DNA from: Phycisphaerae bacterium
GTDB taxonomy: Bacteria; Planctomycetota; Phycisphaerae; UBA1845; Fen-1342
Direction: 5' to 3'
Assembly: GCA_963675745.2 (NCBI GenBank)
Contig: CAXXWX010000015.1
Span: forward strand, 1 to 64,000
Length of the DNA stretch: 64,000 nt
Part shown: positions 4,981-24,139 of the stretch, piece by piece
Layout: the number at the start of each line of letters is the position of its first letter
Position numbering within the stretch: position 1 is the first letter of the stretch
Notes under the pieces: model-generated
Told to the model about the DNA's origin: nothing
Databases searched by the model: none
The model's input: only the letters and a program-made list of their open reading frames with translations
Position numbers and translations under genes: made by a program

Positions 4981-5008
4981 CCCTGTGAGCATCCGAGGAG
5001 ATCAAGAT

Positions 5009-6052
5009 ATGCATACGAACTACCTGACAGATAGTTCCCGCGGACTCCGTGGCAAGCTGTTGCGGGCCGGTCTTTTCGCGGGACTGCTCATGGGCGCCGG
5101 TTCCGCCATTGCTCAGGTGCCCTCGGACCCCAATCTGGCTCCGGTCGACGGCGTGCGTGAGGGATTCATGATCATCGAGGGGGACATTATTGTCCCTGAG
5201 GACTTCTATCTAACCAGAGGAACGTACATCACGGATCTCTGGTCCGATGGCGTTGTGCCGTACGAATTCGACAGCAACGTGTCGGCGCTGAACCGCACGC
5301 GCGCGCTGAACGCCATGGCCGAGTGGGAAAACGTCGCGGACATCGACTTCCGGCCATGTGATACCTGGGATGCGTATTTCCTGCACATCCAGAACTCGAC
5401 CGAAAACAGCTCGATGGTCGGCAGGTACTGGGTACCCTACCTGGGCCAGGACGTAAACATTGTGAGTTGGACCGATCACTTCGTCATCGTACACGAGCTG
5501 GGGCACGCGCTGGGCTACTGGCACGAGCAGTCCCGCTCGGACCGCAACACTTACGTGCAGATCAACTGGGGCAACATCCCGGCAGATAAGGAACATAACT
5601 TTGATATCCAATCTGGCGGATCATCGAACGAGTACGGTCCGTACGACTTTGATTCGGTGATGCACTATGGCGAATGCGCCTTCACCCAATGTGGCGGCTG
5701 TCCGCTGGATCCAAACTGCCTCGAGAACGGTCGCACTATCACCGTGCTCCCGCCTAATGACGTCACTTGGCAGGGCGCGATCGGACAACGGACACACCTG
5801 AGCTTCTGGGACGCACGCGTAATGTCGTTTCTGTACCCGTACGACAATTGGCGCTTTGTCGATGAGTCAGGCCAGGGTCCGTTTCAATACGGGACGTTCT
5901 TCTATCCGTACATCGCATTTGACGCCGGAGTGTACTACACGCCGGAAGGTGGCGTACTCTGGGTCCAGCCTGGGGTGTATGAGGAAGCGGTGGGGGTCTG
6001 GTCAAAGCCGATGTTGATCCGGGCGCCCCTGGGCGCGGTGCTGGGCGGCTGA
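5009..6052 (+). CDS. Secreted astacin-family (M12A) zinc metalloprotease
   Basis: HELGHALGYWHEQSRSDR zinc motif, YDFDSVMHY Met-turn, EGDI propeptide motif and a signal peptide. Confidence 0.92.
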   Translation: MHTNYLTDSSRGLRGKLLRAGLFAGLLMGAGSAIAQVPSDPNLAPVDGVREGFMIIEGDIIVPEDFYLTRGTYITDLWSDGVVPYEFDSNVSALNRTRALNAMAEWENVADIDFRPCDTWDAYFLHIQNSTENSSMVGRYWVPYLGQDVNIVSWTDHFVIVHELGHALGYWHEQSRSDRNTYVQINWGNIPADKEHNFDIQSGGSSNEYGPYDFDSVMHYGECAFTQCGGCPLDPNCLENGRTITVLPPNDVTWQGAIGQRTHLSFWDARVMSFLYPYDNWRFVDESGQGPFQYGTFFYPYIAFDAGVYYTPEGGVLWVQPGVYEEAVGVWSKPMLIRAPLGAVLGG

Positions 6053-6574: not shown

Positions 6575-7165
6575 ATGCGCACGCGATTCGCGCACGGCGT
6601 CCTGGCGCTGGTCGCCATAGTCGGCCTCAGCAGTGAATCGCAGGCGACGGAACGACACGTGCCGAACGAGTATTCGACGATCCAAGCGGCTGTTGATGCA
6701 TGTACGGCAGGCGACGAGATTGTCATCGCTGACGGCGTGTATACCGGCGCTGGAAGTACCGACGTGTCCGCCTATGAGATTGGCATCGTCATTAGATCGG
6801 CGAAAGGGCCGGCAAGCTGCATCATCGATGGCTAAGGCACACATCGAGGTTTCCGGCTCTGGGGAGTGTGCTACGCGGCATCGGTGAGCGGCCTTACCTT
6901 CCGTAATTGCGTGTTGTTCTCGGCTGGCGACGGTGCAGCGCTATTCGCATACTTGGGAGACGGAAACGGCGTCCCCGATGAGCGTGAAGTACCGGGCGAT
7001 TTGAACATCGCTGGCGCGGTCAATGCGGATGACTTCATGATCTTCATGATTTGCATGAGTGGGCCAGCGATCAGCCCGGCAACAGGTTGTGACCAGGCTG
7101 ATCTCGATAGTGATGGTGACGTGGACGTCGCAGATTACGCCGTACTCAGCGTCGCGGCCCAATAG
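6575..7165 (+). pseudogene. Decayed beta-helix secreted protein with dockerin-like C-terminus
   Basis: YSTIQAAVDA...GDEIVIADGVYTG...CIIDG resembles the N-terminus of the protein at 55646-57319. Stop at 6833-6835; most of the middle is missing; DLDSDGDVD motif at the end. Confidence 0.7.
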
Positions 7166-7254
7166 CCAACAGCTTTGCAGCTCGCGCGCGGTCAGACGTC
7201 ATATCCACTTCGTCGATCAAACGGTCTGGGCCCAACGCGCGAGCGATCCCGAAG

Positions 7255-7450
7255 GCGGCTTGCTCGAGCACGTTCAGGCGAACCACATCACCTTGCTGGT
7301 GCAAGGTGGAGCGACAGTGAAGGCGGCACAGGAGCTTGCTCGGCACTCGACGCCGTCACTCACCCTTGGCGTTTACACGAAGTTGGGTGTTCATGACCTA
7401 ACCGTGGCGCTTGAGAACCTGCCCGACCTCAGGCCGGTATCCGAGCCTCC
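7255..7450 (+). pseudogene. Tyrosine integrase C-terminal remnant
   Basis: ITLLVQGGATVKAAQELARHSTPSLTLGVYTK is a box II motif with the catalytic Tyr. No upstream integrase domain is present. Confidence 0.8.
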
Positions 7451-7673
7451 AGAGCAGTTGCTGGCCACTGGTACTGATTCTGGTGAGGGTATCGGTGCTG
7501 GCGCGACTGCCCCCCCGCTCAAGCCCCAGCAGTTAGCACGCGAAACAACGCGAGCGGCTGCGGCCAGCTGCGATTTGGCGGGCGGAGGATCTCGTGCCGT
7601 CCGTGAACATAAGTCCTTGTCGGCTGCGGAGAAACGCGACGTTGCACAGCCTCCTGCAACGTCACGCGAGAAA

Positions 7674-7715
7674 GCCACCGATCGGACTCGAACCGAAAAC
7701 CTGCGGTTTACAAAA
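7674..7715 (-). mobile_element. tRNA-Thr(UGU) 3'-half fragment (att site)
   Basis: Minus strand reads TTTGTAAACCGCAGGTTTTCGGTTCGAGTCCGATCGGTGGC (anticodon loop, T arm, acceptor 3' strand). No 5' half is present; it lies next to the integrase remnant. Confidence 0.75.
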
Positions 7716-8383
7716 TCGGGGCCCCAACTGCGTAAACCGAGCTCATTTCACGTTTTACGAGGCAGGGGCCGAGCGTCTTGGGGCGGCGCTTGCGCGGCTG
7801 CAAGAGGTCGACCCGCTACTCACGAAACTGCTGATCGCTTGGCGCCACATGCCATTGGCCCGCCGTGCAGCGCTCGCCGCCGCCGCAGCGTACCTCGGAA
7901 CGATCTAGACTAGCCGGGGGCCCCGAACAAGCGGTGGCGTATCGAATCCATGGAGGCCCAGCTGAGCGACATTCTCAATTCCTCGGACCTTCCATCTGCC
8001 GAGTCCGACCTCGACATGTTACCCGAGTTTCCCGCCTGTTGTCTCTGCCAGGACCGGCGCGCCAGAATCGGCCGCGCGAGCGCTATCGCGCGTAGCCGAC
8101 TTCTCCCGAATGACCTCGTTTTCAGCCGCTTATCCCGCGGATCTCCATCGGTCGGTCTCTGGAAAGTGGCTTCCTACGCGCTGATGTGCGGCTCAACCAT
8201 CCCGCGTCCTCAACCGACCGAGCCAGCCGGGGGCACAAGAGGCCTGGCCGCTGCACTTTCCGGCCGCCGTTCACGCGGATAAAATGAACGCCCAACGAAC
8301 TTTCGAGCGCGGTCGAGACAAAATCCCGGAGCCTTCTTGAGTGATCCAATTCAAGCTCCGCGGAATTCGAAGGGGCCGCGGCC

Positions 8384-9763
8384 ATGCGCCTGTATCTGAT
8401 CAATCCCGGTAACCCGCTCGTCAGCCTGACGTACGTCAAAGAGAGCCGCTGGAACCACTACCGCGTCTGGAAGCCACTCGGGCTGCTGGTCCTGGCCGCG
8501 CTGACCCCGCGGGAGTGGGAGATCTCCGTTTTTGACGAGAACATCCGCGTGCCGGATTACGGTGGCCTGCCGCGCCCTGACCTGGTTGGCATTACCGCGT
8601 TTACCTCGCAGGCGAACCGCGCGTACGAAGTGGCGACCGAGTTCCGCAGCCGGGGCGTGCCCGTGGTCATGGGCGGCATTCATGCCTCGATGCGTCCCGA
8701 CGAAGCCACGACGCGTGTGGACGCGGTGGTCACGGGGGAAGCCGAGCCGATCTGGGCCGAGGTCCTGGCCGATGTTCCACGAGGTGCGCCGAAGCCCCGC
8801 TACGCCGGCGCGCATGCGGACATGGACGAGATTCCGCCGGCGCGGCATGACCTGCTGACTGGCGATTACGCCTGCGGCGCGATTCAGACCACGCGCGGCT
8901 GCCCGCTCAATTGCAGCTTCTGCAGCGTGACGGCTTTTAACGGGCATCGCTACCGGCAGCGGCCGATTGCGGACGTCGTGCGAGAATTCGTCGCGATCCA
9001 GGAGAAACACGTTCTGATCGTGGACGACAACCTCATCGGTACGCGCCCCGAGCATATCGCTCGGGCGAAGGACCTGTTTCGCGCCATGGTCCGGGCGAAA
9101 CTGCGCAAGCAGTGGATCGCGCAGGCGACGATCAATTTGGCCGATGACGAGGAGCTCCTGACACTGGCGGCCCAGGCCGGCTGTACCGGCGTGTTCATTG
9201 GCTTCGAATCGCTAACCGTTGCCGGGCTCCGCGCGCTGGGCGGGAAGCGCCACATTCTGGAGGGCCGTGATATCGCGGACTCCGTCCGCCGCATCCAGCG
9301 GCACAAGATCCTGGTGGCCGGTTCCTTCATCATGGGTTTGGACACCGATGAGCCGGGGATCGGCCGGCGGATCGCGGAGGCGGCGCTTTGCTATGGCGTG
9401 GATGTCCTCAACACGTTGTTTCTCACGCCGCTACCCGGAACACGGCTGTGGGACGAGATGGAGTCGAAGGGCGACATCGCGGCCGACAGGTTTCCGGAAG
9501 ACTGGAAGTACTACACGCTGACGTTCCCCGTCGCGCGTTACCGACGCTTCGCATGCGTGGACATCGCCCGAGAGATGGAGACGTGCGATGGGATTTTCTA
9601 CTCGCGGTGGAACATCTTGCGCCGGGGGTGGCGTAGTTTCTGGCGACGGCGCAAGCCCTTTACGACGCTGGTGAGCAATCTCTCCTATCGAGGAAATCTG
9701 CGTCTGAGTTGCCAAGCCTGCCGGGACTTTCTTTCGTCCCGCGCGCAAGGTCAAACAGCCTGA
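8384..9763 (+). CDS. B12-binding domain radical SAM protein
   Basis: N-terminal cobalamin-binding-like region (KPLGLL, GGIHAS) and the RGCPLNCSFC cluster motif. Confidence 0.92.
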   Translation: MRLYLINPGNPLVSLTYVKESRWNHYRVWKPLGLLVLAALTPREWEISVFDENIRVPDYGGLPRPDLVGITAFTSQANRAYEVATEFRSRGVPVVMGGIHASMRPDEATTRVDAVVTGEAEPIWAEVLADVPRGAPKPRYAGAHADMDEIPPARHDLLTGDYACGAIQTTRGCPLNCSFCSVTAFNGHRYRQRPIADVVREFVAIQEKHVLIVDDNLIGTRPEHIARAKDLFRAMVRAKLRKQWIAQATINLADDEELLTLAAQAGCTGVFIGFESLTVAGLRALGGKRHILEGRDIADSVRRIQRHKILVAGSFIMGLDTDEPGIGRRIAEAALCYGVDVLNTLFLTPLPGTRLWDEMESKGDIAADRFPEDWKYYTLTFPVARYRRFACVDIAREMETCDGIFYSRWNILRRGWRSFWRRRKPFTTLVSNLSYRGNLRLSCQACRDFLSSRAQGQTA

Positions 9764-9800: not shown

Positions 9801-11273
9801 CTACAACGCTGACGCGACGCGTCGGAAGTGGTATCCGGTAATCGCGAGCGTCATCGCCTCCGGGAATGCGCGGCGGTGGAAGAGCAGTGCCTTCGTGAGG
9901 AACTTCCAGTACTGGCGTCGGCCGCGGCTCAGGATACCCATGACCCACAGCGACTTGATGAACGCCTTCACGTCGCACCAGGACAGGTGAACGCCTTGCC
10001 CCTGCGGACGATACTCACGTAGGAACGTGAGGGTGCGCCGATAGTACATCCTCGGCGTGTAGAGGCGCTTGACGAGCGAGCGGTAGCCCTCGACCAACAC
10101 TTCGCGATCGAGCTTGGGGACGAAATTCAGGCTGGCCTCGACGTTGTTTCCGCTCGCGTCGTGGAGGATGCGGCCCTCCTGTTTGAGCCGCGAGAACAGC
10201 CGCGTGCCCGGCAGCGCCTGGAGCAAACCCACCATGGCTGTCACGACCCCGGCCTCCTGGATGAACTTGATCTGCCGCTCGAAGATGTTGGGCTTGTCGC
10301 TGTCGAACCCAACGATGAAGCCCCCCATCACCTCGAGGCCCGACTTCTGGATCGTTTTGACGGCGGTGAGCATGTCGCGCTTCGCGTTCTGTACCTTCGC
10401 GCACTCGAGCAGGCTATCCTCCTGCGGCGTCTCGATCCCGACGAAGACCTTCTTGAAACCCGCGTGGACCATCAGGTCCAGCAATTCCGCATCGTCCGCC
10501 AGGTTCAACGAGGCCTCGGTCGTGAACTGCGACTGGATGCGGCGGCGTTCCTCCCACGCGATGAGTTCGCGAAGAAACTCCTTTACCTTGGCTCTGTTTC
10601 CAATGAAGTTGTCGTCTACGATGAAAATCGGCCCCGTCCAGCCCGCGTCCACGAGGCTCTCCAGCTCGCCGATCATTTGCTCGTTGGTCTTCAGACGCGG
10701 AACTCGGCCGTTCATCACGATGATGTCGCAGAACTCGCAATTGAACGGGCAACCACGCGAGAATTGAAGCGGCATCGTGGCGTAGTGCTTGAACTTGATC
10801 AGGTCCCACCGGGGCACCGGCGTCTGCCGGATGTCGGGCCGCTTCTCGCAACGGTAGAACTCCTTGAGGTCGCCAGACACCATGTCGGCCACAAGCTCGG
10901 ACATAATGTCCTCCGCCTCGCCGAGGACGAAGTGCTTCACTTCGGGGAAGCCCGCGTGGCCGGTGGTAAACAGGGGCCCGCCCGCGACAACGGTCTTGCC
11001 CAGCTGGCTACATCGGGCGATGACCTCGCGCGCGGAATCGACCTGCGCGAGCATGGCCGAGACAAAAACGCAATCCGCCCACGCGAGTTGCGCGTCGGTG
11101 AGCGATGTGACATTGAGATCGACGAGCTTGATGTCCCAGCGCTTCGGGAGCATCGCCGCCACAGTCAACAGGCCCAGCGGCGGAAAGCACGCCTTCTTGG
11201 AGATGAACGACAGGACGTGCTTGTAGCTCCAAAACGTGTCCGGCGTAGCGGCGGAGACCAGTAACACTCTCAT
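9801..11273 (-). CDS. B12-binding radical SAM protein with DUF4070-like C-terminus
   Basis: PPLGLLTVAAMLP, RGCPFNCEFC and DDNFIGN motifs. Start taken at ATG 11273. Confidence 0.92.
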   Translation of the reverse strand: MRVLLVSAATPDTFWSYKHVLSFISKKACFPPLGLLTVAAMLPKRWDIKLVDLNVTSLTDAQLAWADCVFVSAMLAQVDSAREVIARCSQLGKTVVAGGPLFTTGHAGFPEVKHFVLGEAEDIMSELVADMVSGDLKEFYRCEKRPDIRQTPVPRWDLIKFKHYATMPLQFSRGCPFNCEFCDIIVMNGRVPRLKTNEQMIGELESLVDAGWTGPIFIVDDNFIGNRAKVKEFLRELIAWEERRRIQSQFTTEASLNLADDAELLDLMVHAGFKKVFVGIETPQEDSLLECAKVQNAKRDMLTAVKTIQKSGLEVMGGFIVGFDSDKPNIFERQIKFIQEAGVVTAMVGLLQALPGTRLFSRLKQEGRILHDASGNNVEASLNFVPKLDREVLVEGYRSLVKRLYTPRMYYRRTLTFLREYRPQGQGVHLSWCDVKAFIKSLWVMGILSRGRRQYWKFLTKALLFHRRAFPEAMTLAITGYHFRRVASAL

Positions 11274-11448
11274 CGCAAAACACCTCACTAGCAACAGACC
11301 AAGCTGACACACCCTGTCCGCCAACCCATTCAGACTTCCATCAGCCGTCGAAATCGCCCACGACGGTTACCTGTCGGGTATGGGGCTGGCAAGGGCGGTA
11401 CTGCACTTCGCCGTTCTGTGTTTCCGTCATCGCAGTTCGGCCTTGGTA

Positions 11449-11883
11449 TTAGTCGAGTTTCACCAGGTCGCGGACCATCGGATGGTCTGCCAACTGACCG
11501 GTCTCAAGCCGCATTAGATTGCCCTCGAGTCCCTGAAGGAGTCCATTTGACAATCTGGGCCGGAATCTGCGCAGCACCCCGAGCATTCGAGGTGTGGCGA
11601 GTATAACCAAGCGACCGATCTTGTGCGTATCGACTCGCTTCTTCAGCCAACCCACGATCTGTCCGGCAAAACGTCGCTCCCTCTCCTCGGCGTCATGTGT
11701 CATTCCGTCCCCGGTCTGTGGCCGCAGGGGCTCACGTTCGGGAAACGTGTTCTCGAGCGCGTCATACTCGTCAACATGTTGCGTGCCTTGCTCAGTCAAG
11801 CGGCAGCACAAGAGCCGGCAATGCTCGGCGTCCGCCAGGGCAAACCACGCGTGGTTTCGTCGTTCCACATTCGTCTTACCCAT
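11449..11883 (-). CDS. Host-attachment / baeRF12-like protein
   Basis: WFALADAEHCRLL...ERERRFA...RLVILATPRMLGVLR pattern; GGAG RBS. Confidence 0.65.
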   Translation of the reverse strand: MGKTNVERRNHAWFALADAEHCRLLCCRLTEQGTQHVDEYDALENTFPEREPLRPQTGDGMTHDAEERERRFAGQIVGWLKKRVDTHKIGRLVILATPRMLGVLRRFRPRLSNGLLQGLEGNLMRLETGQLADHPMVRDLVKLD

Positions 11884-12118: not shown

Positions 12119-12538
12119 CTATGATTGATCGCCCGGTTTACTCCCGCTCCAGGTGTCCGCGGGTACGCTATGGGCGAGCTGGTACACCTGTACTGTGTTG
12201 CCGGTCGTGAAGACTCCCACCACGGTGCCGGTAGTCGGCTCGACTTCCGCGGTAGCCTCACGCACCTCCACGCCAGTGATCCGCTTGATCTCCTGCCGCA
12301 ACGACTCGGAGGCGTTGGCGAACAACTGTCGGTGAAAGTCCTGTATCTGCGCGGCACCCTCGGGGCTTTTCGCCACGGCCCGCTCGGCCTCCGACAAGGC
12401 CCCGTGCAGCGTGATCACCAGCGTGGTGTCGCTCAGCACCACGGTCACGGACTTGGGCGTGTTACCCGTCCGTTGCTGCTCGAAAAGACAGGCCGCCTGT
12501 GCAATCTGGCGCGCCATCTCTGAATTGGGCTTGTCCAT
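12119..12538 (-). CDS. DUF2294 (MpsC-like) protein
   Basis: FEQQRTGNTPKSV...LVITLHGALSEAERAV...QEIKRITGVEV; AAGGAG RBS; paralog at 14417. Confidence 0.85.
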   Translation of the reverse strand: MDKPNSEMARQIAQAACLFEQQRTGNTPKSVTVVLSDTTLVITLHGALSEAERAVAKSPEGAAQIQDFHRQLFANASESLRQEIKRITGVEVREATAEVEPTTGTVVGVFTTGNTVQVYQLAHSVPADTWSGSKPGDQS

Positions 12539-12583
12539 GGCGTTTCTCCTTGGACGCGGCGGCCGTCCACGACTGCCGCAAAC

Positions 12584-12708
12584 AAAAAAGCCGACGTGGT
12601 TGAAGATCCTCAGGGGCTCAACCACGTCGGCTTGCTGTTCAACGAGCCTCCCGGCCGGGCCGGGTTGCTCTTCGCTTGGCCATCCGACTCGAATCGTGAT
12701 CGGAGCCG
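12584..12708 (-). promoter_or_regulatory. Structured cis-regulatory RNA candidate with intrinsic terminator, copy A
   Basis: Nearly gap-free homology with 14069-14196; compensatory stems; ends in GCCGACG...CGTCGGCTTTTTT about 45 nt before the DUF2294 start. Confidence 0.7.
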
Positions 12709-12781
12709 AATCCAACATCGCCCGCGGCTCCGTACATCTTCTGCTGGCCGCATGAATGCCGACCAGCATCTACAGCGCAGG

Positions 12782-13756
12782 TTACGAGCGGATACGCTCC
12801 CTCGGAACAGAAGGCGTGACCGCCCGCTGGGCCACCTGGCCCAGTTCCGCCAACCCGTGTTTTCCTTCTTCCGCTCGGCGTCGTCCGTTTCCGTCCGTCA
12901 GCGGCAAGACGCCGGCCATCTCTCCGATCACATTGACCAGTTCACAGCCTGACGGAACGACAATCTTGGCATTGTGGCTCAGTGCATTCTCGAGAGCCTC
13001 CAGCTTCCTCAGAAGCTGCGCGTTTCCAACAAAGTACGTGTTCGCCGCCTCATTCACGAGTTTTATCGCTTGGGCCTCGCCCTCGGCTGCCAGAATCTTG
13101 GCCTGCCGGACGCCTTCGGCCTTCTTGATCTCCGCCCGCTTTTCCCCGTCCGCCTGTCGTTCGACGGCGTTCGCGAAATCCAAGGCGGCCACCTTCTCGT
13201 TCTCCGCCTTGACCACCTTGTTCATCGTCTCCTGGACGTCCTGGGGAGGGTCTATTTCCTTCAGCTCGGTCCTGACGATGGACATGCCCCAGCTCATGGT
13301 TTCCTTGCTCAACGTTCTCAGAAGCGCGCCGTTGATGTTGTCGCGTTCGCTGTTCGCGGACTTCAGCGTCAACGTGCCGATGATATTGCGGAGCGTCGTA
13401 CGAGCCAAACTCACAATCTGACTCTGGTAGTTGTTGACGTGGTACTGGGAACTCTTAACGCTGGCCTCGTCGTCCTTCACCTTGAAGTAGACTTGGGCAT
13501 CCACCCGGGCGTTGAGGTTGTCGTTGGTGATAATCTCCTGCGGCTGGGCATCAACCATCTGCTCCGTCGTGTTGACCTGGATCATCCTGTCAATGACGGG
13601 GATGATCCAGTTGAAGCCCGGACTCGCAAAGCGCCGGTACTTGCCGAGTCGCTCGACGAGTCCCTTGTGCGTGGGGCGGACAATCCTGATGCCCGAGAAA
13701 AAGATCAGTACCGGAACGACAACTACGAAGATCACTGCATACACGATCGGATCCAT
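12782..13756 (-). CDS. SPFH/band 7 (stomatin/QmcA-like) membrane protein
   Basis: N-terminal TM helix; VERLGKY...PGFNWIIP, QEIITNDN and AEGEAQAI coiled-coil motifs. Confidence 0.92.
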   Translation of the reverse strand: MDPIVYAVIFVVVVPVLIFFSGIRIVRPTHKGLVERLGKYRRFASPGFNWIIPVIDRMIQVNTTEQMVDAQPQEIITNDNLNARVDAQVYFKVKDDEASVKSSQYHVNNYQSQIVSLARTTLRNIIGTLTLKSANSERDNINGALLRTLSKETMSWGMSIVRTELKEIDPPQDVQETMNKVVKAENEKVAALDFANAVERQADGEKRAEIKKAEGVRQAKILAAEGEAQAIKLVNEAANTYFVGNAQLLRKLEALENALSHNAKIVVPSGCELVNVIGEMAGVLPLTDGNGRRRAEEGKHGLAELGQVAQRAVTPSVPRERIRS

Positions 13757-13788
13757 AAGACGGTCCTTTCACATCAGTGTCGTGAAGT

Positions 13789-14055
13789 TCATGCGTGCGA
13801 GGCCGAGCGACGGATGGCATGCCAGACTGCCAGGAACAACACCGCCCCGACCACCGCGACCAGGAGGCTCCAGAGATTGAAGCCCGTCACGCCGGCAGAT
13901 CCGGCCGCGCTGAAGATCCAACCGCCAATCACTGCGCCGACGATGCCGAGCAGAATGTCAAACGCGAGTCCCTCGCCGCGCTTGTTTACCAGCGTGCTGG
14001 CAATGTAGCCGGCGATAAGCCCCAACACGATCCAGCCGATTACTCCCATGACCAT
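13789..14055 (-). CDS. GlsB/YeaQ/YmgE family stress-response membrane protein
   Basis: WIVLGLIAGYIAS...DILLGIVGAVIGG...SLLVAVVGAVL; GAGGAG RBS. Confidence 0.92.
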   Translation of the reverse strand: MVMGVIGWIVLGLIAGYIASTLVNKRGEGLAFDILLGIVGAVIGGWIFSAAGSAGVTGFNLWSLLVAVVGAVLFLAVWHAIRRSASHA

Positions 14056-14068
14056 GGCTTGACTCCTC

Positions 14069-14196
14069 AAAAAAAAAGCCGACGCAACAGAGCACCGTAG
14101 AGTGCTCGATCACGTCGGCATACTTTTCATCGGGCCGTCCGGAAAACCCGGAGTGCCCTTTATTCAGTCATCCGATTTACGTGCCGATCGGAGCCG
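14069..14196 (-). promoter_or_regulatory. Structured cis-regulatory RNA candidate with intrinsic terminator, copy B
   Basis: Homologous to 12584-12708. The terminator hairpin and T9 tract lie directly before the GlsB-family RBS. Confidence 0.7.
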
Positions 14197-14416
14197 CCTC
14201 GCAGTTCGGGTGGCTCCACTCAGCGATGGAAGTATACCACGCCGGAGAAGGAAAGCAACTGGATTCCCGAACCGCTCCGGATATGATGCCTCTCAGGCCA
14301 ACCGGAAGGCAAGGCCGCCGGGTGCGTGTTCAGCGAGTCTGGCGGACCAGGAACAGCGTTTTTAGGCCGGAATCGCCGGTGGCCGGTCCACCGCTGACCC
14401 AGATAGGAAGGCCTCC

Positions 14417-14797
14417 ATGAGAACCCAAGGCGAAATCGAAGCCGCCATTTCCCAGGGGATCGGTCGCTTTGAACAGGAATTCATGGGCCGGGGCCCCAAG
14501 AACATTCAAACCCATCTGATCGGTGATCTGCTCGTGGTCCGCCTCCAGGGCGTATTGACCGCGGCCGAACAGCACCTGGTCAAGTCGCTTCCAGGTGAAA
14601 AGGGCCGGGACCTGCTCAAACAGGTCAGGACCCAGTTGATCGAAACGGCGCGGCCGATGATCGAGGCGATGGTCCAGGAGATCACCGGGGGCCGCGTAGC
14701 GAGCCTCCACCACGACGTCAGCACCGTCAGCGGCGAAGAGGTCGTGATCTTCAGCCTGACCGATTCGCCGCTCACACGCCCAACGAAGAAGCAATAG
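14417..14797 (+). CDS. DUF2294 (MpsC-like) protein
   Basis: FEQEFMGRGPKNI...LVVRLQGVLTAAEQHL...LHHDVSTVSGEEVVIFSL. Confidence 0.9.
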   Translation: MRTQGEIEAAISQGIGRFEQEFMGRGPKNIQTHLIGDLLVVRLQGVLTAAEQHLVKSLPGEKGRDLLKQVRTQLIETARPMIEAMVQEITGGRVASLHHDVSTVSGEEVVIFSLTDSPLTRPTKKQ

Positions 14798-14806
14798 CCT
14801 CCTCGA

Positions 14807-14898
14807 CAGAATCTGCGGATCGTGTCAGCTTCTGGACGTTCACAGGAAGCCATGACGCTGCACGACCTGCGCTGAAGTCTTGCTTGAGTGGCGAAGGT
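14807..14898 (+). repeat. 92-bp intergenic repeat, copy 1 (upstream of atpG)
   Basis: 79/92 identical to 16182-16273 by manual alignment; can form a long stem. Confidence 0.85.
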
Positions 14899-14904
14899 AG
14901 ACTG

Positions 14905-15834
14905 ATGGTACAAAGACGCGCAATTCTGAAGCGCAAGAAAGCAGCGCAGACCATCGGCAAAATCACCCGGGCGATGGCAATGGTCGCCAGCCTGAAGCTC
15001 CAGAAGTTGCGGAAGCGGATGCTCGCCGCCGCGCCTTACGCGCAGAAGCTCCGTGAGATGGTCGCCGTACTTGCCGCGCATGTCGGAGAACTGCAGCACC
15101 CTTTTCTCCGACCGCCCACCGTTGAGAACTCCGCTAAACGAGTCGTCCTCCTCGTCATCACGAGTAATCGTGGCCTGGTCGGGGCGTACAACAGCAATGT
15201 GCTGCGCATGGCGTCGGATTTCATCCGCCGGCGGGAGGCCGAGAACATAGCCGTCGAGGTTCACGTCACGGGAAATAAAGGCGTCGCGTATTTTGCATTT
15301 CACGGGCGTCCGCTCGCGCAGCGATACGATCAATCGGGTGATCTACCCACGCTGGCCGATGTGGAAGCAACCGCTGCCCGGTTCGCCGACCGGTTCACAT
15401 CCGGGCAAATCGACTCGGTCCACGTGGCGTACACGAACTTCGTCAGCGCCGGTTTGCATCGGCCGGAACTGCTTACCCTGTTGCCGATGGCGGCCTTGAC
15501 CGGCGCCGCGGCCGGAACCGGTGGCCAGCCATTAACATCACCAGGCAAGACCGGCAGCGCCGTCATGTATGACTTCTCGCCCGATCCGAACATCCTGCTG
15601 GGCGAGTTGCTGCCGCCCACGCTGAAGGCCTGCCTGTTGGGGTGTTTTCTGAACGCGGCCACGAGTGAGAATGCGGCACGGAGGATCGCTACGATGCGCG
15701 CCACCGAAAACGCCGACCAGATACTCAAGACCCTCACGTTGCGGTACAACCGCGCTCGCCAAAACGATATCACCGACGAGTTGATGATCATCGTCGGTGC
15801 TGCTGAAGCCATCAGAACTTCGGCGAACACCTGA
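14905..15834 (+). CDS. atpG: ATP synthase F1 gamma subunit (orphan)
   Basis: KITRAMAMVASLKL, ITSNRGLVGAYN and ATSENAARRIATMRATENA...YNRARQNDITDEL signature regions. Confidence 0.92.
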   Translation: MVQRRAILKRKKAAQTIGKITRAMAMVASLKLQKLRKRMLAAAPYAQKLREMVAVLAAHVGELQHPFLRPPTVENSAKRVVLLVITSNRGLVGAYNSNVLRMASDFIRRREAENIAVEVHVTGNKGVAYFAFHGRPLAQRYDQSGDLPTLADVEATAARFADRFTSGQIDSVHVAYTNFVSAGLHRPELLTLLPMAALTGAAAGTGGQPLTSPGKTGSAVMYDFSPDPNILLGELLPPTLKACLLGCFLNAATSENAARRIATMRATENADQILKTLTLRYNRARQNDITDELMIIVGAAEAIRTSANT

Positions 15835-16299: not shown

Positions 16300-16878
16300 A
16301 TGGAGCGAACTACGGAACGCACTGAACAGCTAGCCCAGTTCGTGGCCGCCGGCCAGAACGAGCGCGTGGCTGAAGAGCTTGGCTCTATCCACCCTGGCGA
16401 GGCGGCGGCCCTGCTCCGCGAGCTTCCTCAGGATTCGCACGTTGACACGCTGCTCGCTCTGCCTCCGGAGCAGGCCGCCAATATCTTGCATGGAACTGCC
16501 GGACGACATGGACCTTCTCCGGCCGCCGTTGTCATGGGCATGGAGCCGGACGCCGCCGCGCCGATCGTCCATGCGCTCGCGGGCGGTGGAGATGCAGACG
16601 GACGAGGAGGTGGACCTTCTCCAGGACGTATCGGCCGGCCATGCCGAGGCGATCCTCGATCGTGTCGATCAGGGAGACGCCGCCATCGCGCGCGCACTCC
16701 TGTCGTATGACCAGGACACGGCCGGTGGATTGATGCAGGCGGAGTTCATTGCCGTTCCGGCCGCGCGGCATGGCCGCGGGCTGGGGGACGCCGTGCGCCA
16801 GATGCGCTCGCGGGCGGTGGAATACGCCGACTACCCTGCTTCATACTTGTACATTGTTGACGATGACGGGCGCCTTGG
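16300..16878 (+). pseudogene. mgtE: Magnesium transporter MgtE N-terminal remnant
   Basis: HPGEAAALL...EMQTDEEVDLL...LLSYDQDTAGGLMQAEFIAV...YLYIVDDDGRL. Frameshifted, with no TM domain. Confidence 0.8.
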
Positions 16879-17387
16879 GCAGCACGGCGGAGGCGTTTCT
16901 GGGCGGGGGACTGAAGATGCTGATCCCGGACAGCCTGTACTGGCCGGGGATGGGCGTCGTGGCCGGGCTGGTCTTGGTATTCGTGATCGGCGCTCTGATG
17001 AGGGCATGGCTCTTTCGAAAGGTGTTTCGCTGGGGCGAGCGGCTTGTGGAGCGAATTCCCCTGGTGAAGGCGCTGTATGGGGCCGTGCGCGACCTGATGG
17101 GCTTCTTCTCGGGCTCCGACACGAAGGCGATACGCAGGGCCGTCATGGTGACTGTTGGGGACACCCCCGTACGCCTCATCGGTTTCATCACGCGAGAGGA
17201 CTTCGGCGACCTGCCGGTCGGGATCGGCGGCGACGACACCGTGGCGGTCTATCTGCCCATGAGCTACCAGATTGGTGGTTTTACGACGATGGTCCCGCGC
17301 TCGGCGATCCAACCTGTCGACATGTCCATCGAGCAGGCGATGCGGTTCGCCGTCACTGCGGGGATGGGCGAGGTGCAGGGAGGATAG
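16879..17387 (+). pseudogene. DUF502 membrane protein, 5'-truncated
   Basis: PGMGVV...RIPLVKALYGAVRDL...VAVYLPMSYQIGG...MSIEQAMRF; abuts the mgtE remnant. Confidence 0.7.
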
Positions 17388-17464
17388 GCAGGCAGTATGC
17401 ACGGTTCTGTCGCGCTGCGGCGCGGGCCAAGGGTCACTTGCGGCCCGAGTCGTTCGTGTAGCTC

Positions 17465-18614: not shown

Positions 18615-20342
18615 TCACGGAAGTGACCCTCCACATCCGTCCGAAATACTGCCGCAGAAAGGCGCCAGAAGCCGCCGCACCTCGCCGGGCGTGCTGCAGC
18701 GCAGCGATTGGCTCGCGACATCTTCCGTCTCGCGGGAGCTTATGCCGCGGAGCATCTTGCGGACGCCGTCGCCTCGTGTGGGGCCCATGCTCAATTCACG
18801 CACGCCCAGGCCGACCAGCAGGCAGGCGAAAGCCGGGTCCGCAGCATCCTCGCCACAGACGGAGACCGGGCGATGCCGCGCCTGGGCCGCAGTCACAATT
18901 TGCTTGATGGCCTTCAGCACAGACGGATGATGGACCGTGTACTCGCTGGCCAAGTCGGGGGCATCCCGGTGGACGGCGAGCATGTAGTGGGTCAGGTCGT
19001 TTGTACCAATGGCCACGAAGTCGGCCAACTCGAGAATCTCCTCCAGCGCAAACAGCGCCGCCGGGGTCTCAACCATCGCGCCCACCTGCGGCCTCTGCTT
19101 GCCGCCCACCTGCTCGACCGCGACGGTCAGTGCCTCGCAAGCACGCCTCAGGTCGTCGCCGCCGACCACCATAGGAAAGAGCACGCGGACGTCTCTGCCC
19201 TGGGCTGCGTGAGCGATGGCCTGCAACTGCGTGTCGAGGAGGTCCCGTTCAGCCAACGAGAACTGCAGGCCTCGGAGCCCCCAGGTGACGGCGTTCCTGT
19301 GTTCAGCCGCCAGGAACAAGGGGACTTTCTCGTCGCCGAAATCGAAGGTCCGGATGACCAATGGCCGGCCGTTCAGCGCATCGGCCACCTGCTCATAGAT
19401 TTCCACCTGAGCCGCATAGCTCGGCCGTTGCGGCGCTTCGAGGAAAAGGAACTCCGTCCTGAACAGTCCCACACCCTCGAAATGATGCACGCAAGCCTGC
19501 TTCACCTCTTCGGGGCGCTCGATATTCGCGAGCAGAGTAACCTTGATCCCGTCTCGCGTGACGCACGGCTGCGCCCCCAGGTCAGCCACGGTAGTCTGCA
19601 CACGATCGTGCTGGTGTTTCCGCTCGCGGAAGTGCTGCATCTCCGCTTCCGTGGGAGCGAGGGTCACCTCACCCGAAATCCCATCGACGAGCAGGTGCAT
19701 CCCTGGCCGGATGTGGGCGGTGATCTCTGAGATGCCCACCACCGCCGGAATCCCGAGAGAACGAGCGACGATCGCGGTATGGCTGGTGTCGCTTCCAAGC
19801 TCGGTGACGATTGCGGCCAGGCCGCTGTGCGCGAATTCCAGGGCTTCCGATGGGAGCAGTTCGCGTGCGGCGATGATGGAGCCGGGCGGCAAGGGCGGGG
19901 TAGCCCGGAGCTGGTCCTCCGCAAGATGCCCAAGCATCCGCCGTCCCACGTCGCGGACGTCCTGCTCCCGCTCACGAAAACAGGCATTTTCGAGTCCGCC
20001 CAGTCGCTGGGCCAGCTCCTTGACTACCTCATCGACGGCCTGCTCGACGTTGACCTCTTCGCGCGAAACGTACTCTCGTACTAGAGATGCGATCTCCTGG
20101 ATCAGCCTGGCATGAAGCTGCGATATCTCGGAGGCAGCGCGGGGGGTTGACTCTCCCGCCTGCGCCAGTTCAGTACGGGAGCGCTCGACCGCCTCCTCCA
20201 ACCGTTTATGCTGGTCGTCGATCTCCGCCGGCGGGATCGCATACCGCGGGATTTCGAGCCTGGGGCGGACCTCGTAATCGTAGACGACTGCGGTGCCCTC
20301 GACGTATCCGGGCGAAACGGGTTTACCCTTGAGGAGGGACAT
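18615..20342 (-). CDS. ptsP: Phosphoenolpyruvate-protein phosphotransferase (PTS enzyme I)
   Basis: TSHTAIVARS phospho-His motif, GVGLFRTEFLF, IGTNDL and SVCGE. Confidence 0.92.
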   Translation of the reverse strand: MSLLKGKPVSPGYVEGTAVVYDYEVRPRLEIPRYAIPPAEIDDQHKRLEEAVERSRTELAQAGESTPRAASEISQLHARLIQEIASLVREYVSREEVNVEQAVDEVVKELAQRLGGLENACFREREQDVRDVGRRMLGHLAEDQLRATPPLPPGSIIAARELLPSEALEFAHSGLAAIVTELGSDTSHTAIVARSLGIPAVVGISEITAHIRPGMHLLVDGISGEVTLAPTEAEMQHFRERKHQHDRVQTTVADLGAQPCVTRDGIKVTLLANIERPEEVKQACVHHFEGVGLFRTEFLFLEAPQRPSYAAQVEIYEQVADALNGRPLVIRTFDFGDEKVPLFLAAEHRNAVTWGLRGLQFSLAERDLLDTQLQAIAHAAQGRDVRVLFPMVVGGDDLRRACEALTVAVEQVGGKQRPQVGAMVETPAALFALEEILELADFVAIGTNDLTHYMLAVHRDAPDLASEYTVHHPSVLKAIKQIVTAAQARHRPVSVCGEDAADPAFACLLVGLGVRELSMGPTRGDGVRKMLRGISSRETEDVASQSLRCSTPGEVRRLLAPFCGSISDGCGGSLP

Positions 20343-20445
20343 AGAGCACCTCGTCCAATGGTCATTGAAGACGCCCGACAGCGCCGACGCAAGGGGGATG
20401 AAGCCGCTCCGCGTGCGCCGGGCGGGGCCGACCAGGCCACAAAAG

Positions 20446-23400
20446 TCATCCCGCATTTGCCTGGTGCGCTGCAATGGCGGCGCCGACCTTCGCGATGAGG
20501 TCGGCGGGCTTGTAGGGCTTTGCCAGGAACTCCACTGGCCCGATCCCGGCGAAGCGCTCCGCAACGTGTTCTTCGCTGTACCCGCTGACAACGACGACGG
20601 GCACACCGGACCGGATTTCGAGCATCTTCCGGTACACCTCCTCCCCGCCCAGGTCGGGCATTGTCAGATCGAGCAGTACAGCGTCGATCTGTTCATGGTG
20701 TTCACCGAACGCCTCGATCGCTGCGCGGCCGCCGTCAGCTGTCCGGACCGTGAATCCGGCGCGCTCCAGTAATCGCTGTGCCACCGTGCGGACGAGATCT
20801 TCGTCGTCCACCAGGAGCACCGTACCTGTCTTGCACGGCATCGCTGAGGTCGGTTCCTCGGCGATACGGCGCACCAGCGGCTGCTTCGGCGCCGGGAACA
20901 AGACCCGGAAACACGTTCCCTGTCCGGGCGCGCTGCGCACTTGGAAAGCCCCGCGATGCCCGCGGACGATGCCCTGGGCCGCGGCCAGCCCCAAGCCCCG
21001 GCCGGTGAATTTCGTGGTGAAGAACGGGTCAAACATCTTCGCCTGGGTGTCGATATCCATGCCGCAGCCGGTGTCCGCAACCTCCAGAAACACGTAGCGC
21101 CCCTCGGCCACGTCTTCCTCGTGCAGCATCGCGGCCAGCAACGCGCTATCCGCGTCGACAACTCCGATGCGGACGGCCACCGTGCCCCCCGTGTCGCCGA
21201 TCGCTTCCGCCGCATTTATGATCAGATTCATCACCAGTTGCCGCAGTTGGGTGGCGTCGGCCTCGATCAACGGTGGGTCCTTCGCCAAGTCGAACTCCAG
21301 CGCGACCTTCTTGGAAATCGACGCCTTTACGAGCTCGGCCATGTCCTGCACCAGTTCCGGGAGGTCGACCGCGACAACTTCGAAGCGGCCTTTGCCGGAG
21401 TAGGCCAACATCTGTCGGGTCAGGTCGGCGGCGCGGTTGCCGGCGCGTTCGATGTGCTTGATCAATTTGCGCACGGGCTCATTTTCCGGCAGCAGCTCCA
21501 GCGCCAGGCTGGCACTGCCGAGCACGCCAGTGAGCAAGTTGTTGAAGTCGTGGGCGACCCCGCCGGCCAACACGCCGAGACTCTCCAGTTTCTGGGAGTG
21601 CAGCACGCGGCCCTCCAACTCGCGGCGCTGCTGCTCAGCGTGTTTGAGGCGGGTCACGTCGGAGAAGGTGATGACCACCCCGTCGATGCGATCGTCGAGC
21701 GTGCGATACGGCAGGATGCGCATCGTGTGCCAACGCCCATCGCGGGTCTGCACTTCCCTTTCCGTCGGCGACAGGTCCTTGAGCATCTTCTCGCTCTCGG
21801 CGGCGAGTTCCTTACCATCGAAGTTCTTGGTGATGTGGCTGATCGGCCGTCCCAGGTCCGCGGGGATCAGGTTGAGCAACTCCGTGGCCCGCGGTGTAAA
21901 CCGCTTGATACGCAGTTGGCTGTCCAGGAAAACCGTGGCGATCTCCGTGGCTGCGAGCAGATTGGCGAGATCGTTATTGCTGGCGGTGAGTTCGGCCAGC
22001 TTCTCGTTGAGTTGGCTGTTGACGGTGGTCAGCTCCTCGTTGACCGATTGCAGTTCCTCCTTGGAGGCCTCCAACTCCTCGTTGGCGGACTGCAACTCCT
22101 CGTTCATGGACATGACTTCTTCGTTGGCGGCCCGAAGTTCCTCGTTAGCGGTATCGAATTCCTCGGCGTCGGCACGAAGTTCGTTCCGCAGAGTCTTCAC
22201 CTCCTGCTCAAGCTGGGTCACGAGCGGTTCATCCCCGGCTGACGCGGGCAGGGCGGCCGACGACGAACGGGGATCGCACGCGTCCTCGAAGATGATGGCC
22301 AGGAGCTTGTCGGCCTCCGGCGCGGAGGGAACCCGCATAACGGTCAGATCTGCCAGCGGCGTGCCAGCGCGGGGAACCGGCGCGCGCGGGATTGTGACCG
22401 CCTCGCCGTGCTGGAGGGCTTGCTCTATCGCCCGGCGCAACTTCGCCGAGAGCGTTCCGGTGGTCATGTCCAGCACATTCAAGCTGGCCGGTCCTTTCGG
22501 ATGGCCCAGATAGCGCTCCGTCTCGCCGTAGAAATGGAGGATCTGCCCCCGGGGATTGACCAGCACGACGCTGGCCTTGAAGTGTCTCAGGAGCACGTCC
22601 TGGTTGGCCTGTGTGAGAGTGGCGGCGGGTGGCGGGATCGCGCTGCGCTCGCGTACGCCGACGGTTCGACCGCCGGTGCGGATCGGAAATGCGCCGGCCG
22701 CCTGGCGGTTCGAGCGGATCAGGCGGTAGATCCGCCACGGCTTGGAAACCGGCTCGAAGAGGTCCTCCATCTCGGCGATGCCTTCGGACTTGCCCAGGAA
22801 GAGGTACCCGCCCGGGCTCAGGGCGAAGCTGAACAGCGCGAGGACTTTCTTCTGGAAGGCCGGCTCGATGTAGATCAGCACGTTACGGCAACTGATCAGG
22901 TCGAGCTTTGAGAAGGGCGGATCCGTGATCAGATCTTGCCGCGAGAAAACCACCGCCTCGCGGAGTTGCTTGGTGACCTGGTACTTCTGGCCCTGCCTGG
23001 TAAAGAACCGCTCCAGCCGATCCGTCGAGATCGCCTCGGCGATGCTCTCGTGGGTAAACCCCGGCCCGGCCCACTTCCAGCGCGTGGTCGTCCACGTCCG
23101 AAGCAAACACCTGGACCGTGCGACCGGTGCCTGCGGCGGCCACGGACTCCAGCATGAGCATGGCGAGAGAATAGGCCTCCTCGCCGGAAGCACAACCGGG
23201 CACCCAGGCTCGCAACGCGTAGTCCGGGTCACTCCTGGCCACCAGCGGGACAATGGCCTCCTTCCGCAGTTCCTCGAAGGCCTTGGCGTCGCGGAAAAAG
23301 GAACTCACACCGATCAACATGTCCCGGGAAAGCTGTGTCAGCTCTCGTTGGTCCTCTTCGAGCAGTTTCAGGTATGCAGCCATGCCGGCAACCTGCGTGA

Positions 23401-24139
23401 TGCCCATGCGGCGCTGGATGCGGCGAACGATGGTGGCCTTTTTGTAGTGCCGGTAATCGCTGTTCGCGCGGACACGCAGGAGCTTCAGGATGGGCTCGAG
23501 ATCGTCCGCGGCAGCTTCCGTTGTCGTGTGGCCGGGGCTTGTCCGAGCCGCCGCGTGCTGCGCGTAGCCCACCAGCGCGGCGGGCATCTGCGCCACTGGC
23601 AGGACGTGGTCCACCAGGCCGGTGTCGATCGCGCTTTGCGGCATCGCCGGGAACTGGGCGGTCTCCGGATCCTGCGCCATGCACATCCCGCCGGCCTCGC
23701 GAACCGCACGGATTCCCCGCGTTCCGTCCGAGCCGCTGCTGCCCGAAAGAATGATGCCGACTGCCGCCTCGTGCTGATCCTCGGCCAGGGAGGTCAGGAA
23801 GAAATCGATCGGCATCCGGATACGGTCGTGCTCCGACCGCTCGCCCAGGACGAGTCGCCCCCCGTCGATGGACATGTATTTACCGGCGGGATTGGCGTAA
23901 GCGTGGTTGGCCTGCACCGGCATGCCGGCTTCGGCCTGGACGACCTTCATTCGCGTGCACTTGCCCAGGATGTCCGCCATGCGGCTTTCGTGGGTCGGCT
24001 CGAGGTGCTGGATCACCACGAAGGCCAATCCGCTGTCCGAGGGCATGGCCGTGAAAAGCTCTTTCAGCGCCTCGATTCCGCCCGCCGAGGCGCCGATCCC
24101 CACAACCAGTACCGGCGTGGAATCAGATCCGTCGCTCAT
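20446..24139 (-). CDS. CheB/CheR fusion with PAS, histidine kinase and receiver domains (frameshift near 23050)
   Basis: GIGASAGG (CheB); GCASGEEAYS and DLISCRNVLIY (CheR); NEELQS coiled coil; AHDFNNLL; FFTTKFTGRGLGL; receiver VLLVDD...DLTMP. Confidence 0.88.

Follow-up and report, generated by a model that had tools for sequence, protein, structure and literature searches.

We analysed a 64,000-nt stretch of DNA from a Phycisphaerae bacterium of the phylum Planctomycetota (GenBank assembly GCA_963675745.2, contig CAXXWX010000015.1, positions 1 to 64,000; hereafter the window), in which two copies of a leader RNA precede genes on the minus strand. In this leader a long hairpin, which we call the rod, and an intrinsic terminator form a conserved, mutually exclusive pair that is located before stress-type genes and is OFF by default. 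The leader represents a real, uncatalogued attenuator family that probably has a dedicated protein partner from the DUF2294/MpsC/YbcI family (PF10057). A first-pass annotation of the sequence had proposed a candidate new riboswitch or attenuator at this place. What stood of that proposal is a cis-regulatory leader that covaries, is in no catalogue and carries a terminator/antiterminator switch, while a protein-operated attenuator is now judged likelier than a riboswitch.

The two window copies, 14069-14196 (copy A) and 12584-12708 (copy B), both on the minus strand, align without gaps with 81 identities over 125 positions (65%), or 81 of 128 in a global alignment, in agreement with the near-gapless copies at roughly two-thirds identity noticed at first. 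Each ends in a G+C-rich stem and a run of T, and the next gene on that strand is glsB after copy A and a DUF2294 gene after copy B. The compensatory changes quoted earlier for the helices P2 and P3 are present in the sequence, and the pairing of the terminators is indeed kept despite their different upper stems. Terminator A (14069..14119) has its stem at 14119-14078 followed by nine T, and terminator B (12584..12631) has its stem at 12631-12590 followed by six T; the inner part of the former was called by a terminator scanner, and the latter was not called by a simple scanner.

The rods occupy positions 14114..14176 in copy A and 12626..12688 in copy B, with basal helices formed by 14175-14172 with 14118-14115 and by 12688-12684 with 12630-12626, respectively. 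In copy A the basal helix leads into a conserved 3x3 purine-rich internal loop, after which come a 3-bp helix, two upper helices that covary and an apical loop that is variable, and the 5' strand of the terminator is the basal 3' strand of the rod. When folded in isolation, the rods outdo shuffled sequences, with z-scores of -2.9 (3 of 200 shuffles as good) and -4.1 (0 of 200). The first-pass annotation had arranged the leader as P1, a linker and P2, and had suggested that an RTCGG strand pairs with CCGAC of the terminator as an antiterminator. The antiterminator pairing held up, but the P1-linker-P2 layout did not: the conserved core is one rod closed by that very pairing. When 50 nt of upstream sequence were included, the upstream strand of the former P1 was, in both window copies, taken up by a separate 5' hairpin, and RTCGG paired with CCGAC with a probability of 1.0 versus 0.0 for the P1 upstream strand. 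Upstream complements of at least 5 nt to the RTCGG strand occur in 26 of 190 copies, where shuffles predict 9, and P1 is thus a minor side feature.

The 5' hairpin before copy A (14190..14217, minus strand; minimum free energy and pair probabilities) is optional and absorbs the strand formerly assigned to P1; its counterpart before copy B is at 12701..12732 on the same strand, with no clear -10 box upstream, and comparable hairpins are seen by eye upstream of many homologues. A putative sigma-70-type promoter of copy A was read from the sequence at 14231..14258 (minus strand), with a -35 box at 14258-14253 and an extended -10 box at 14239-14231. A consensus promoter scanner misses it, as its -35 box has three of six consensus matches. 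Copy B may therefore be an internal second checkpoint on the same transcript, as no promoter was seen before it. Among assembled RNA contigs of relatives (4 of the 16 listed runs, one of the 16 being presumed RNA), contig X1 covers 13762-14160, from terminator A into glsB, although ends, strand and level are not readable from such contigs.

To describe the family, loci were collected by a protein search with MpsC-b (the product of the DUF2294 gene behind copy B) in 150 class-level genomes, further copies were added by nhmmer, and 24 copies were aligned to build a model, R1, in which the window copies A and B, as seeds, score 96.5 and 95.6 bits. With R1, 22 of 151 class genomes proved to carry 72 copies scoring 55 bits or more, with up to about ten copies per genome, clustered in islands. 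Another seven matches were weaker, five being echoes on the reverse strand, and entered none of the later counts except for one covariation test. The source genome has exactly three strong copies, the third lying on contig C13 between a divergent and a co-oriented DUF2294 gene; a B12 radical SAM-like open reading frame (ORF) is also found downstream of it. A second set was obtained with a GTDB protein query and comprises the best 80 of 489 MpsC-b loci, of which 79 are labelled Planctomycetota and one Gammaproteobacteria. A copy is present in 76 of these 80 loci (122 copies) and lies at most 250 nt upstream of MpsC-b in 66; the four loci without a copy all start some 100 nt or less from a contig end. 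Altogether we obtained 194 copies, or 191 once identical or gapped rows were removed. The single locus labelled Gammaproteobacteria (L121:2229-2337) combines a type I leader, as we call the form found in the window, with an MpsC-b that is 86% identical to that of the window in a metagenome-assembled genome, which may reflect transfer or misbinning.

Conservation in this dataset supports both alternative folds. The conserved fold is an unbranched rod of about 65 nt. From its base upward it consists of a helix of 5 bp, the conserved 3x3 purine-rich internal loop, a helix of 3 bp, another purine-rich loop, the two upper helices and an apical loop that varies; its unpaired loop positions are conserved at 94-97%. 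Five bases are shared, as the basal 3' strand of the rod doubles as the 5' strand of the terminator. At least four of the five basal pairs are retained in 188 of the 191 distinct copies, and the competing terminator pairs on the shared strand in 187. The upper helices and the terminator covary above all 500 shuffles and every slid control, and the covariation of the upper helices was repeated in 121 distinct copies from the protein-query loci; alignments A2 and A6, used here, had been fitted to the model, a bias in its favour. The nascent rod closes in all 72 class copies, and in 71 of them the minimum free energy structure of the full-length RNA is the terminator fold, with a median advantage of 7.7 kcal/mol (7.0 for copy A and 7.5 for copy B). 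Since the terminator fold wins, the default state is OFF and read-through requires something that stabilizes the rod.

The position of the copies is that of a gene leader. The gap to the next co-oriented ORF has a median of 60 nt and does not exceed 150 nt in 62 of the 72 class copies, and, across 189 copies, hexamers resembling a -10 box are most frequent 41-70 nt before the rod, where three of ten bins hold 155 of the 263 matches. The first-pass annotation had named a mobile repeat as the alternative should homologues be placed randomly or lack covariation; both the covariation and the placement 5' of genes counter it. The collection of homologues and the table of downstream genes that it had suggested gave 191 distinct copies of a Planctomycetota leader family, the first genes of which are MpsC-b and a mixed set of stress-type genes.

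The automatically picked first ORFs of the class set have a Pfam match in 48 of 72 cases, and some picks are in the wrong frame. The most frequent products are MpsC-b (11), KaiC (5), ice-binding types (5), histidine kinases (4), GlsB (3), WXXGXW (2) and desaturases (2), with single cases including DUF883, DUF5670, sigma-70, SPFH, squalene-hopene cyclase, NDH-2, radical SAM and P-type ATPase proteins. In the GTDB set together with 11 copies from a phylum-wide sample described below, MpsC-b is the first gene in 72 of 133 cases, and the other first genes include CsbD (4), collagen-OmpA (4), GlsB (3) and PRC-barrel (3) proteins, as well as ferritin, DUF3309, a hibernation-factor-like protein, chaperonin and CsrA; some of these ORF picks are likewise in the wrong frame. 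A KaiC-type ATPase was seen as the first gene in six loci (L086, L085, L094, L070, L079 and L128). The type I first genes form a mixed stress set with no metabolite or transporter theme in common. CsbD, GlsB, DUF883 and similar proteins are markers of general-stress regulons, and the set of targets suggests general stress or the stationary phase as the context of the signal.

The leader is absent from the known classes with which it was compared, and the first-pass annotation had not recognised it as one of several such classes either. No Rfam 15 family matched at the gathering threshold in the window or in five homologous loci totalling 81 kb. The best sub-threshold match within 12450-14450 (E-value 0.11; 23 bits versus a threshold of 64) covers a terminator hairpin alone, as a chance match. 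A visual likeness to SAM-I, c-di-GMP-I, ZTP, T-box and 5S loop E has no Rfam support and was dismissed. In the literature we found no description of the leader RNA or of DUF2294 function, with the reservation that the supplements of PMC11109978 and PMC5737381 could hold the motif among unnamed candidates; the string 'Planctomyc' occurs 0 times in the main texts of these two papers. The Rhodopirellula-1 motif, listed with no Rfam accession, was described in Planctomycetes as a possible cis-regulatory hairpin (Weinberg 2010, PMC2864571). By its first alignment rows and consensus in the PMC2864571 supplement, it has different conserved ends and no likeness by eye to the leader, and was rejected.

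The window encodes two DUF2294 proteins. MpsC-a (14417..14797, plus strand; PF10057, E-value 2e-35) is a canonical DUF2294/YbcI protein divergent from copy A, and MpsC-b (12119..12538, minus strand; PF10057, E-value 5e-21) is a diverged paralogue and the first gene behind copy B. The two proteins share 25% identity. The content of lysine plus arginine is 8% in MpsC-b versus 13% in MpsC-a, and arginines conserved in MpsC-a are missing from MpsC-b. The predicted structure of MpsC-b, with a predicted local distance difference test (pLDDT) score of 73, has the same order of helices and strands as MpsC-a (AlphaFold model, pLDDT 90) over the N-terminal 90 residues. Their positions relative to the leader are opposite. 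MpsC-b is the commonest first gene behind it, whereas none of the 194 copies has MpsC-a as its first gene, and MpsC-a is divergent within 4 kb in 41 of the 55 full-length GTDB loci; among the class-level copies, a partly seeded set, 46 of 72 lie within 6 kb of an MpsC-a gene. MpsC-a is thus positioned as a regulator rather than as a target.

A phylum sample of 150 genomes served as an unseeded test of co-occurrence, as the class-level figure (17 of 21 genomes) is circular, the model having been seeded from the same loci, and was not used. DUF2294 is above the cut-off in 11 of the 150 genomes. The type I leader was found in five genomes, four of them with DUF2294, and a variant leader, type II, in five genomes, all with DUF2294. 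Genomes with either type carry DUF2294 in eight of nine cases versus 11 of 150 overall (Fisher p = 3e-10, a significance overstated owing to kinship). In six of the seven DUF2294 genomes of this sample without a type I copy, a type II copy adjoins the gene.

The type II leader was recognized in seven class genomes that have DUF2294 but no R1 match, where a rod-plus-terminator leader is located just 3' of the gene. It has the same plan of the basal loops as type I and often its own promoter. Such leaders lie directly downstream of the DUF2294 gene at L209:8057-8156, L212:5315-5407, L213:3119-3213 and L210:2842-2928, and also in L220, L221, L222, L224, L225 and L236. In the seven class loci they precede a DUF4914 gene (four loci), a phosphoenolpyruvate (PEP) carboxykinase gene behind a short DUF2294-like ORF (one), a major facilitator superfamily transporter gene (one) and an ORF with no Pfam match (one). 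At L209:7684-8217 (minus strand) a highly diverged second DUF2294-like ORF follows the type II leader, a layout of regulator plus paralogue that involves another paralogue. A model of four type II copies, R2, added a single weak match to its own seeds when run on the class sample. Eight further MpsC loci, several of which stop at contig edges, had no R1 match above 14 bits and no R2 match. In a quick tree, from which six partial protein matches were excluded, a single starred branch (98) unites all 29 MpsC-a proteins beside type I leaders with four proteins whose loci have no detected leader, and it leaves out each of the seven MpsC-a proteins beside type II leaders. In this tree the type II variant tracks a separate DUF2294 clade.

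The placement of MpsC-a and its co-variation with the leader make a protein-operated attenuator likelier than a riboswitch, as do the phylum sample and the tree. The explanation that we favour, with somewhat better than even confidence, is protein-dependent antitermination, in which binding of MpsC-a to the internal loops at the base of the rod would allow the polymerase to pass. RNA polymerase would start about 45-60 nt upstream and then make the rod of about 65 nt, whose last five bases, as the sequence and covariation indicate, are also the first strand of the terminator, which makes the two structures mutually exclusive. Without help the terminator is computed to win, and the stress genes would remain off. 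Upon a signal, MpsC-a would bind the purine-rich loops at the base of the rod and hold the basal helix, allowing read-through. Copy A would gate glsB and the SPFH gene, and the apparently promoterless copy B would be a second gate, for MpsC-b, baeRF12 and the radical SAM gene. Because MpsC-b no longer has several of the conserved basic residues and its own gene is placed behind the leader, it is, speculatively, a probable brake that damps MpsC-a in a negative feedback.

Several observations weigh against this explanation. Four class genomes that are 92-99% complete (G023, G026, G079 and G123) each have one strong copy and no DUF2294 even at an E-value of 0.1, and another genome with one strong copy (G205, 89% complete) also has no DUF2294; the copy in G026 is 18 nt away from a contig end. 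In one genome (G194) a type I copy is accompanied by only a DUF2294 protein of the type II clade, though a type II copy is present as well. Stranded cassettes or assembly gaps may account for these cases, or the RNA may work without the protein. Co-inheritance of RNA and gene as one cassette would also yield the linkage and the matching of clades. The basal helix has two-sided changes at none of its five pairs in the 121-copy set and at two of five in the first set, and its support comes chiefly from conservation and one-sided changes. With regard to the protein, MpsC-a is not basic overall (median net charge -1), and searches of PDB, representatives and BFVD brought up no clear match of its model to an RNA-binding fold (best Z-score 6.4, none reaching 8). 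RbfA, considered as a fold match, was rejected at a Z-score of 5.3, within background. A PDB sequence search with MpsC-a gave a best E-value of 0.35, and the ESM Atlas, with PF10057 clusters left out, gave no usable match. Finally, in the part of PMC6689103 consulted, deletion of mpsC in Staphylococcus aureus had no growth phenotype and mpsC was dispensable for MpsAB; this text gives no function for mpsC and reports a weak terminator between mpsAB and mpsC.

A riboswitch of the ON type, in which the conserved loops of the rod bind a small ligand or an ion (such as a species of inorganic carbon, a cation or an alarmone) and block the terminator while DUF2294 proteins are partners in the pathway, is a weaker but substantial possibility. 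The leaders have the same-strand position 5' of genes, the excluding expression platform and the covariation-supported structure of a riboswitch; the overlap with the terminator is classic riboswitch logic, and the strong conservation of the unpaired loop positions and the five leader-bearing genomes without DUF2294 would also agree with it. In addition, the type II leader precedes PEP carboxykinase or DUF4914 genes in five of seven loci checked, which suggests a metabolic signal. However, the rod is single and unbranched, with no multi-helix junction. In its internal loops and lack of branches it resembles known protein-bound antiterminators. The mixed stress set of type I targets would likewise argue against a riboswitch, which would leave unexplained both the divergent MpsC-a, never behind the leader, and the way in which the leader type follows the MpsC-a clade.

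That a general factor or physical cue operates the switch (CsrA, a cold-shock or RRM chaperone, a ribosomal protein, temperature or folding kinetics) seems improbable. Copies in genomes without DUF2294, an RRM-like gene seen by eye near the C13 copy, the csrA gene behind one copy, and ice-binding proteins and desaturases among the targets are consistent with it, but such a factor would not confine the leader to DUF2294-bearing genomes, and the sole CsrA gene of the source genome is located on another contig. Moreover, CsrA prefers GGA in an apical loop, whereas the conserved GGA of the leader is in a helix and internal loop. We give very little credence to the idea that the leader has no switch and is a repeat, mobile or duplicated, or a plain terminator that travels with gene cassettes. 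The clustering of copies in islands and the 49-bp tRNA-Thr end copy at 7670-7718 near the locus fit such an origin; against it stand the co-orientation with the next ORF at short distance, the Pfam matches of many of these ORFs, the upstream -10-like hexamers and the conservation of both alternative folds, and a plain terminator would not retain the upstream rod.

The protein-dependent antitermination proposed here can be compared with several known systems. Ribonucleic antiterminator (RAT) hairpins, bound by BglG, SacY and LicT, are irregular hairpins with internal loops, the 3' side of which overlaps an intrinsic terminator; they are OFF by default, with a dedicated regulator gene nearby. 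The leader resembles them in the overlap of antiterminator and terminator, the OFF default and the adjoining candidate regulator gene. It differs in a rod about twice as long and in a multi-copy stress regulon instead of sugar operons; the linked protein is PF10057 only, with no CAT-RBD or PRD domain, and a diverged second paralogue lies behind the leader. In the ANTAR (EutV/NasR) and HutP systems a small dedicated protein relieves terminators at several sites of a regulon, and one small protein would similarly serve several terminators here. ANTAR targets, however, are two adjacent hexaloop hairpins with conserved loop bases, whereas the leader is a single rod with a variable apical loop and no twin hexaloop hairpins, and its linked protein has no ANTAR domain; HutP was not among the listed fold matches of MpsC-a, and no chain reached a Z-score of 8. 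The fluoride (crcB) and ZTP (pfl) riboswitches (PMC2864571) and the Na+/DUF1646 riboswitch (PMC5737381) also have a 5' leader with a conserved core, a terminator overlap and a predicted ON logic. Unlike these, the leader has no Rfam model match, no common gene theme and a tight link to an unregulated neighbour gene. Both window proteins belong to PF10057, as do S. aureus MpsC (mpsABC) and Bacillus subtilis YbcI. Unlike in the MpsABC/DabAB bicarbonate transporter locus, MpsB/DabA (PF10070) was not found in any of the five leader-bearing genomes tested (G000, G020, G129, G090 and G019), with a positive B. subtilis control, and the name 'Na+-translocating' is therefore a poor guide to the ligand. 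In its working, the leader is an attenuator of RAT/BglG or riboswitch type that falls outside the Rfam families, RAT/BglG, ANTAR and MpsABC where tested.

The gene order leader-glsB-SPFH-leader-DUF2294-baeRF12 given by the first-pass annotation is correct (PF04226, PF01145, PF10057 and PF18856). The first gene behind copy A encodes a GlsB/YeaQ/YmgE-type small membrane protein (Transgly_assoc; 13789..14055, minus strand; PF04226, E-value 2e-13) and is followed by a gene for an SPFH/Band 7 protein (12782..13756, minus strand; PF01145, E-value 1e-35). Downstream of MpsC-b, co-oriented genes encode a baeRF12/Host_attach protein (11449..11883, minus strand; PF18856, PF10116) and a B12-binding radical SAM protein with DUF4070 (9801..11324, minus strand), probably the end of the operon, a homologue of which is the first gene behind a copy in locus L104. 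The latter gene converges with another B12-binding radical SAM gene at 8384-9763 (plus strand).

On the other side, the MpsC-a gene is directly followed by an ATP synthase gamma subunit gene (14884-15834, plus strand; PF00231), with no other ATP synthase gene seen adjoining. Fragments of an MgtE N-terminal domain lie in two frames at 16300-17461 (plus strand), overlapped by a DUF502 gene. A gene resembling enzyme I of the phosphotransferase system (18615-20606, minus strand; PEP-utiliser domains) has no HPr or EII gene noticed beside it, and a phosphorylation input from it to the leader system is conceivable. At 20446-24139 (minus strand) a CheB-CheR-PAS-histidine kinase-receiver fusion occupies two overlapping frames, an apparent frameshift. 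The tRNA-Thr end copy mentioned above is 96% identical to the end of a tRNA-Thr(TGT) gene on contig C10; an apparent integrase remnant, judged by eye, lies beside it at about 7060-7600, and the copy may be an attachment-site scar at an island edge. In addition, an ORF at 4985-6052 (plus strand) has an HExxH motif and resembles, by eye, an astacin-type metallopeptidase.

Either outcome for the leader would be new, a riboswitch class or an RNA-binding antiterminator family, and all parts, that is two leaders and both paralogues, lie within 3 kb of the window, suited to in vitro reconstitution. A broader proposal, which we advance tentatively and as rather less than an even chance, is that DUF2294/MpsC/YbcI proteins are an unrecognised family of RNA-binding antiterminators with clade-specific leaders. 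One planctomycete clade would run a general-stress regulon via termination with a disabled paralogue as a brake, and another would gate CO2-using PEP carboxykinases; the family would perhaps sense inorganic carbon or stress, also at mpsAB/ndhF-ybcC in Firmicutes. If antitermination by MpsC-a is true, it would provide a function for DUF2294/MpsC/YbcI, a widespread family also present in S. aureus and B. subtilis. For the planctomycetes, the findings suggest that general-stress genes are controlled by attenuation at many leaders and not by a sigma factor alone.

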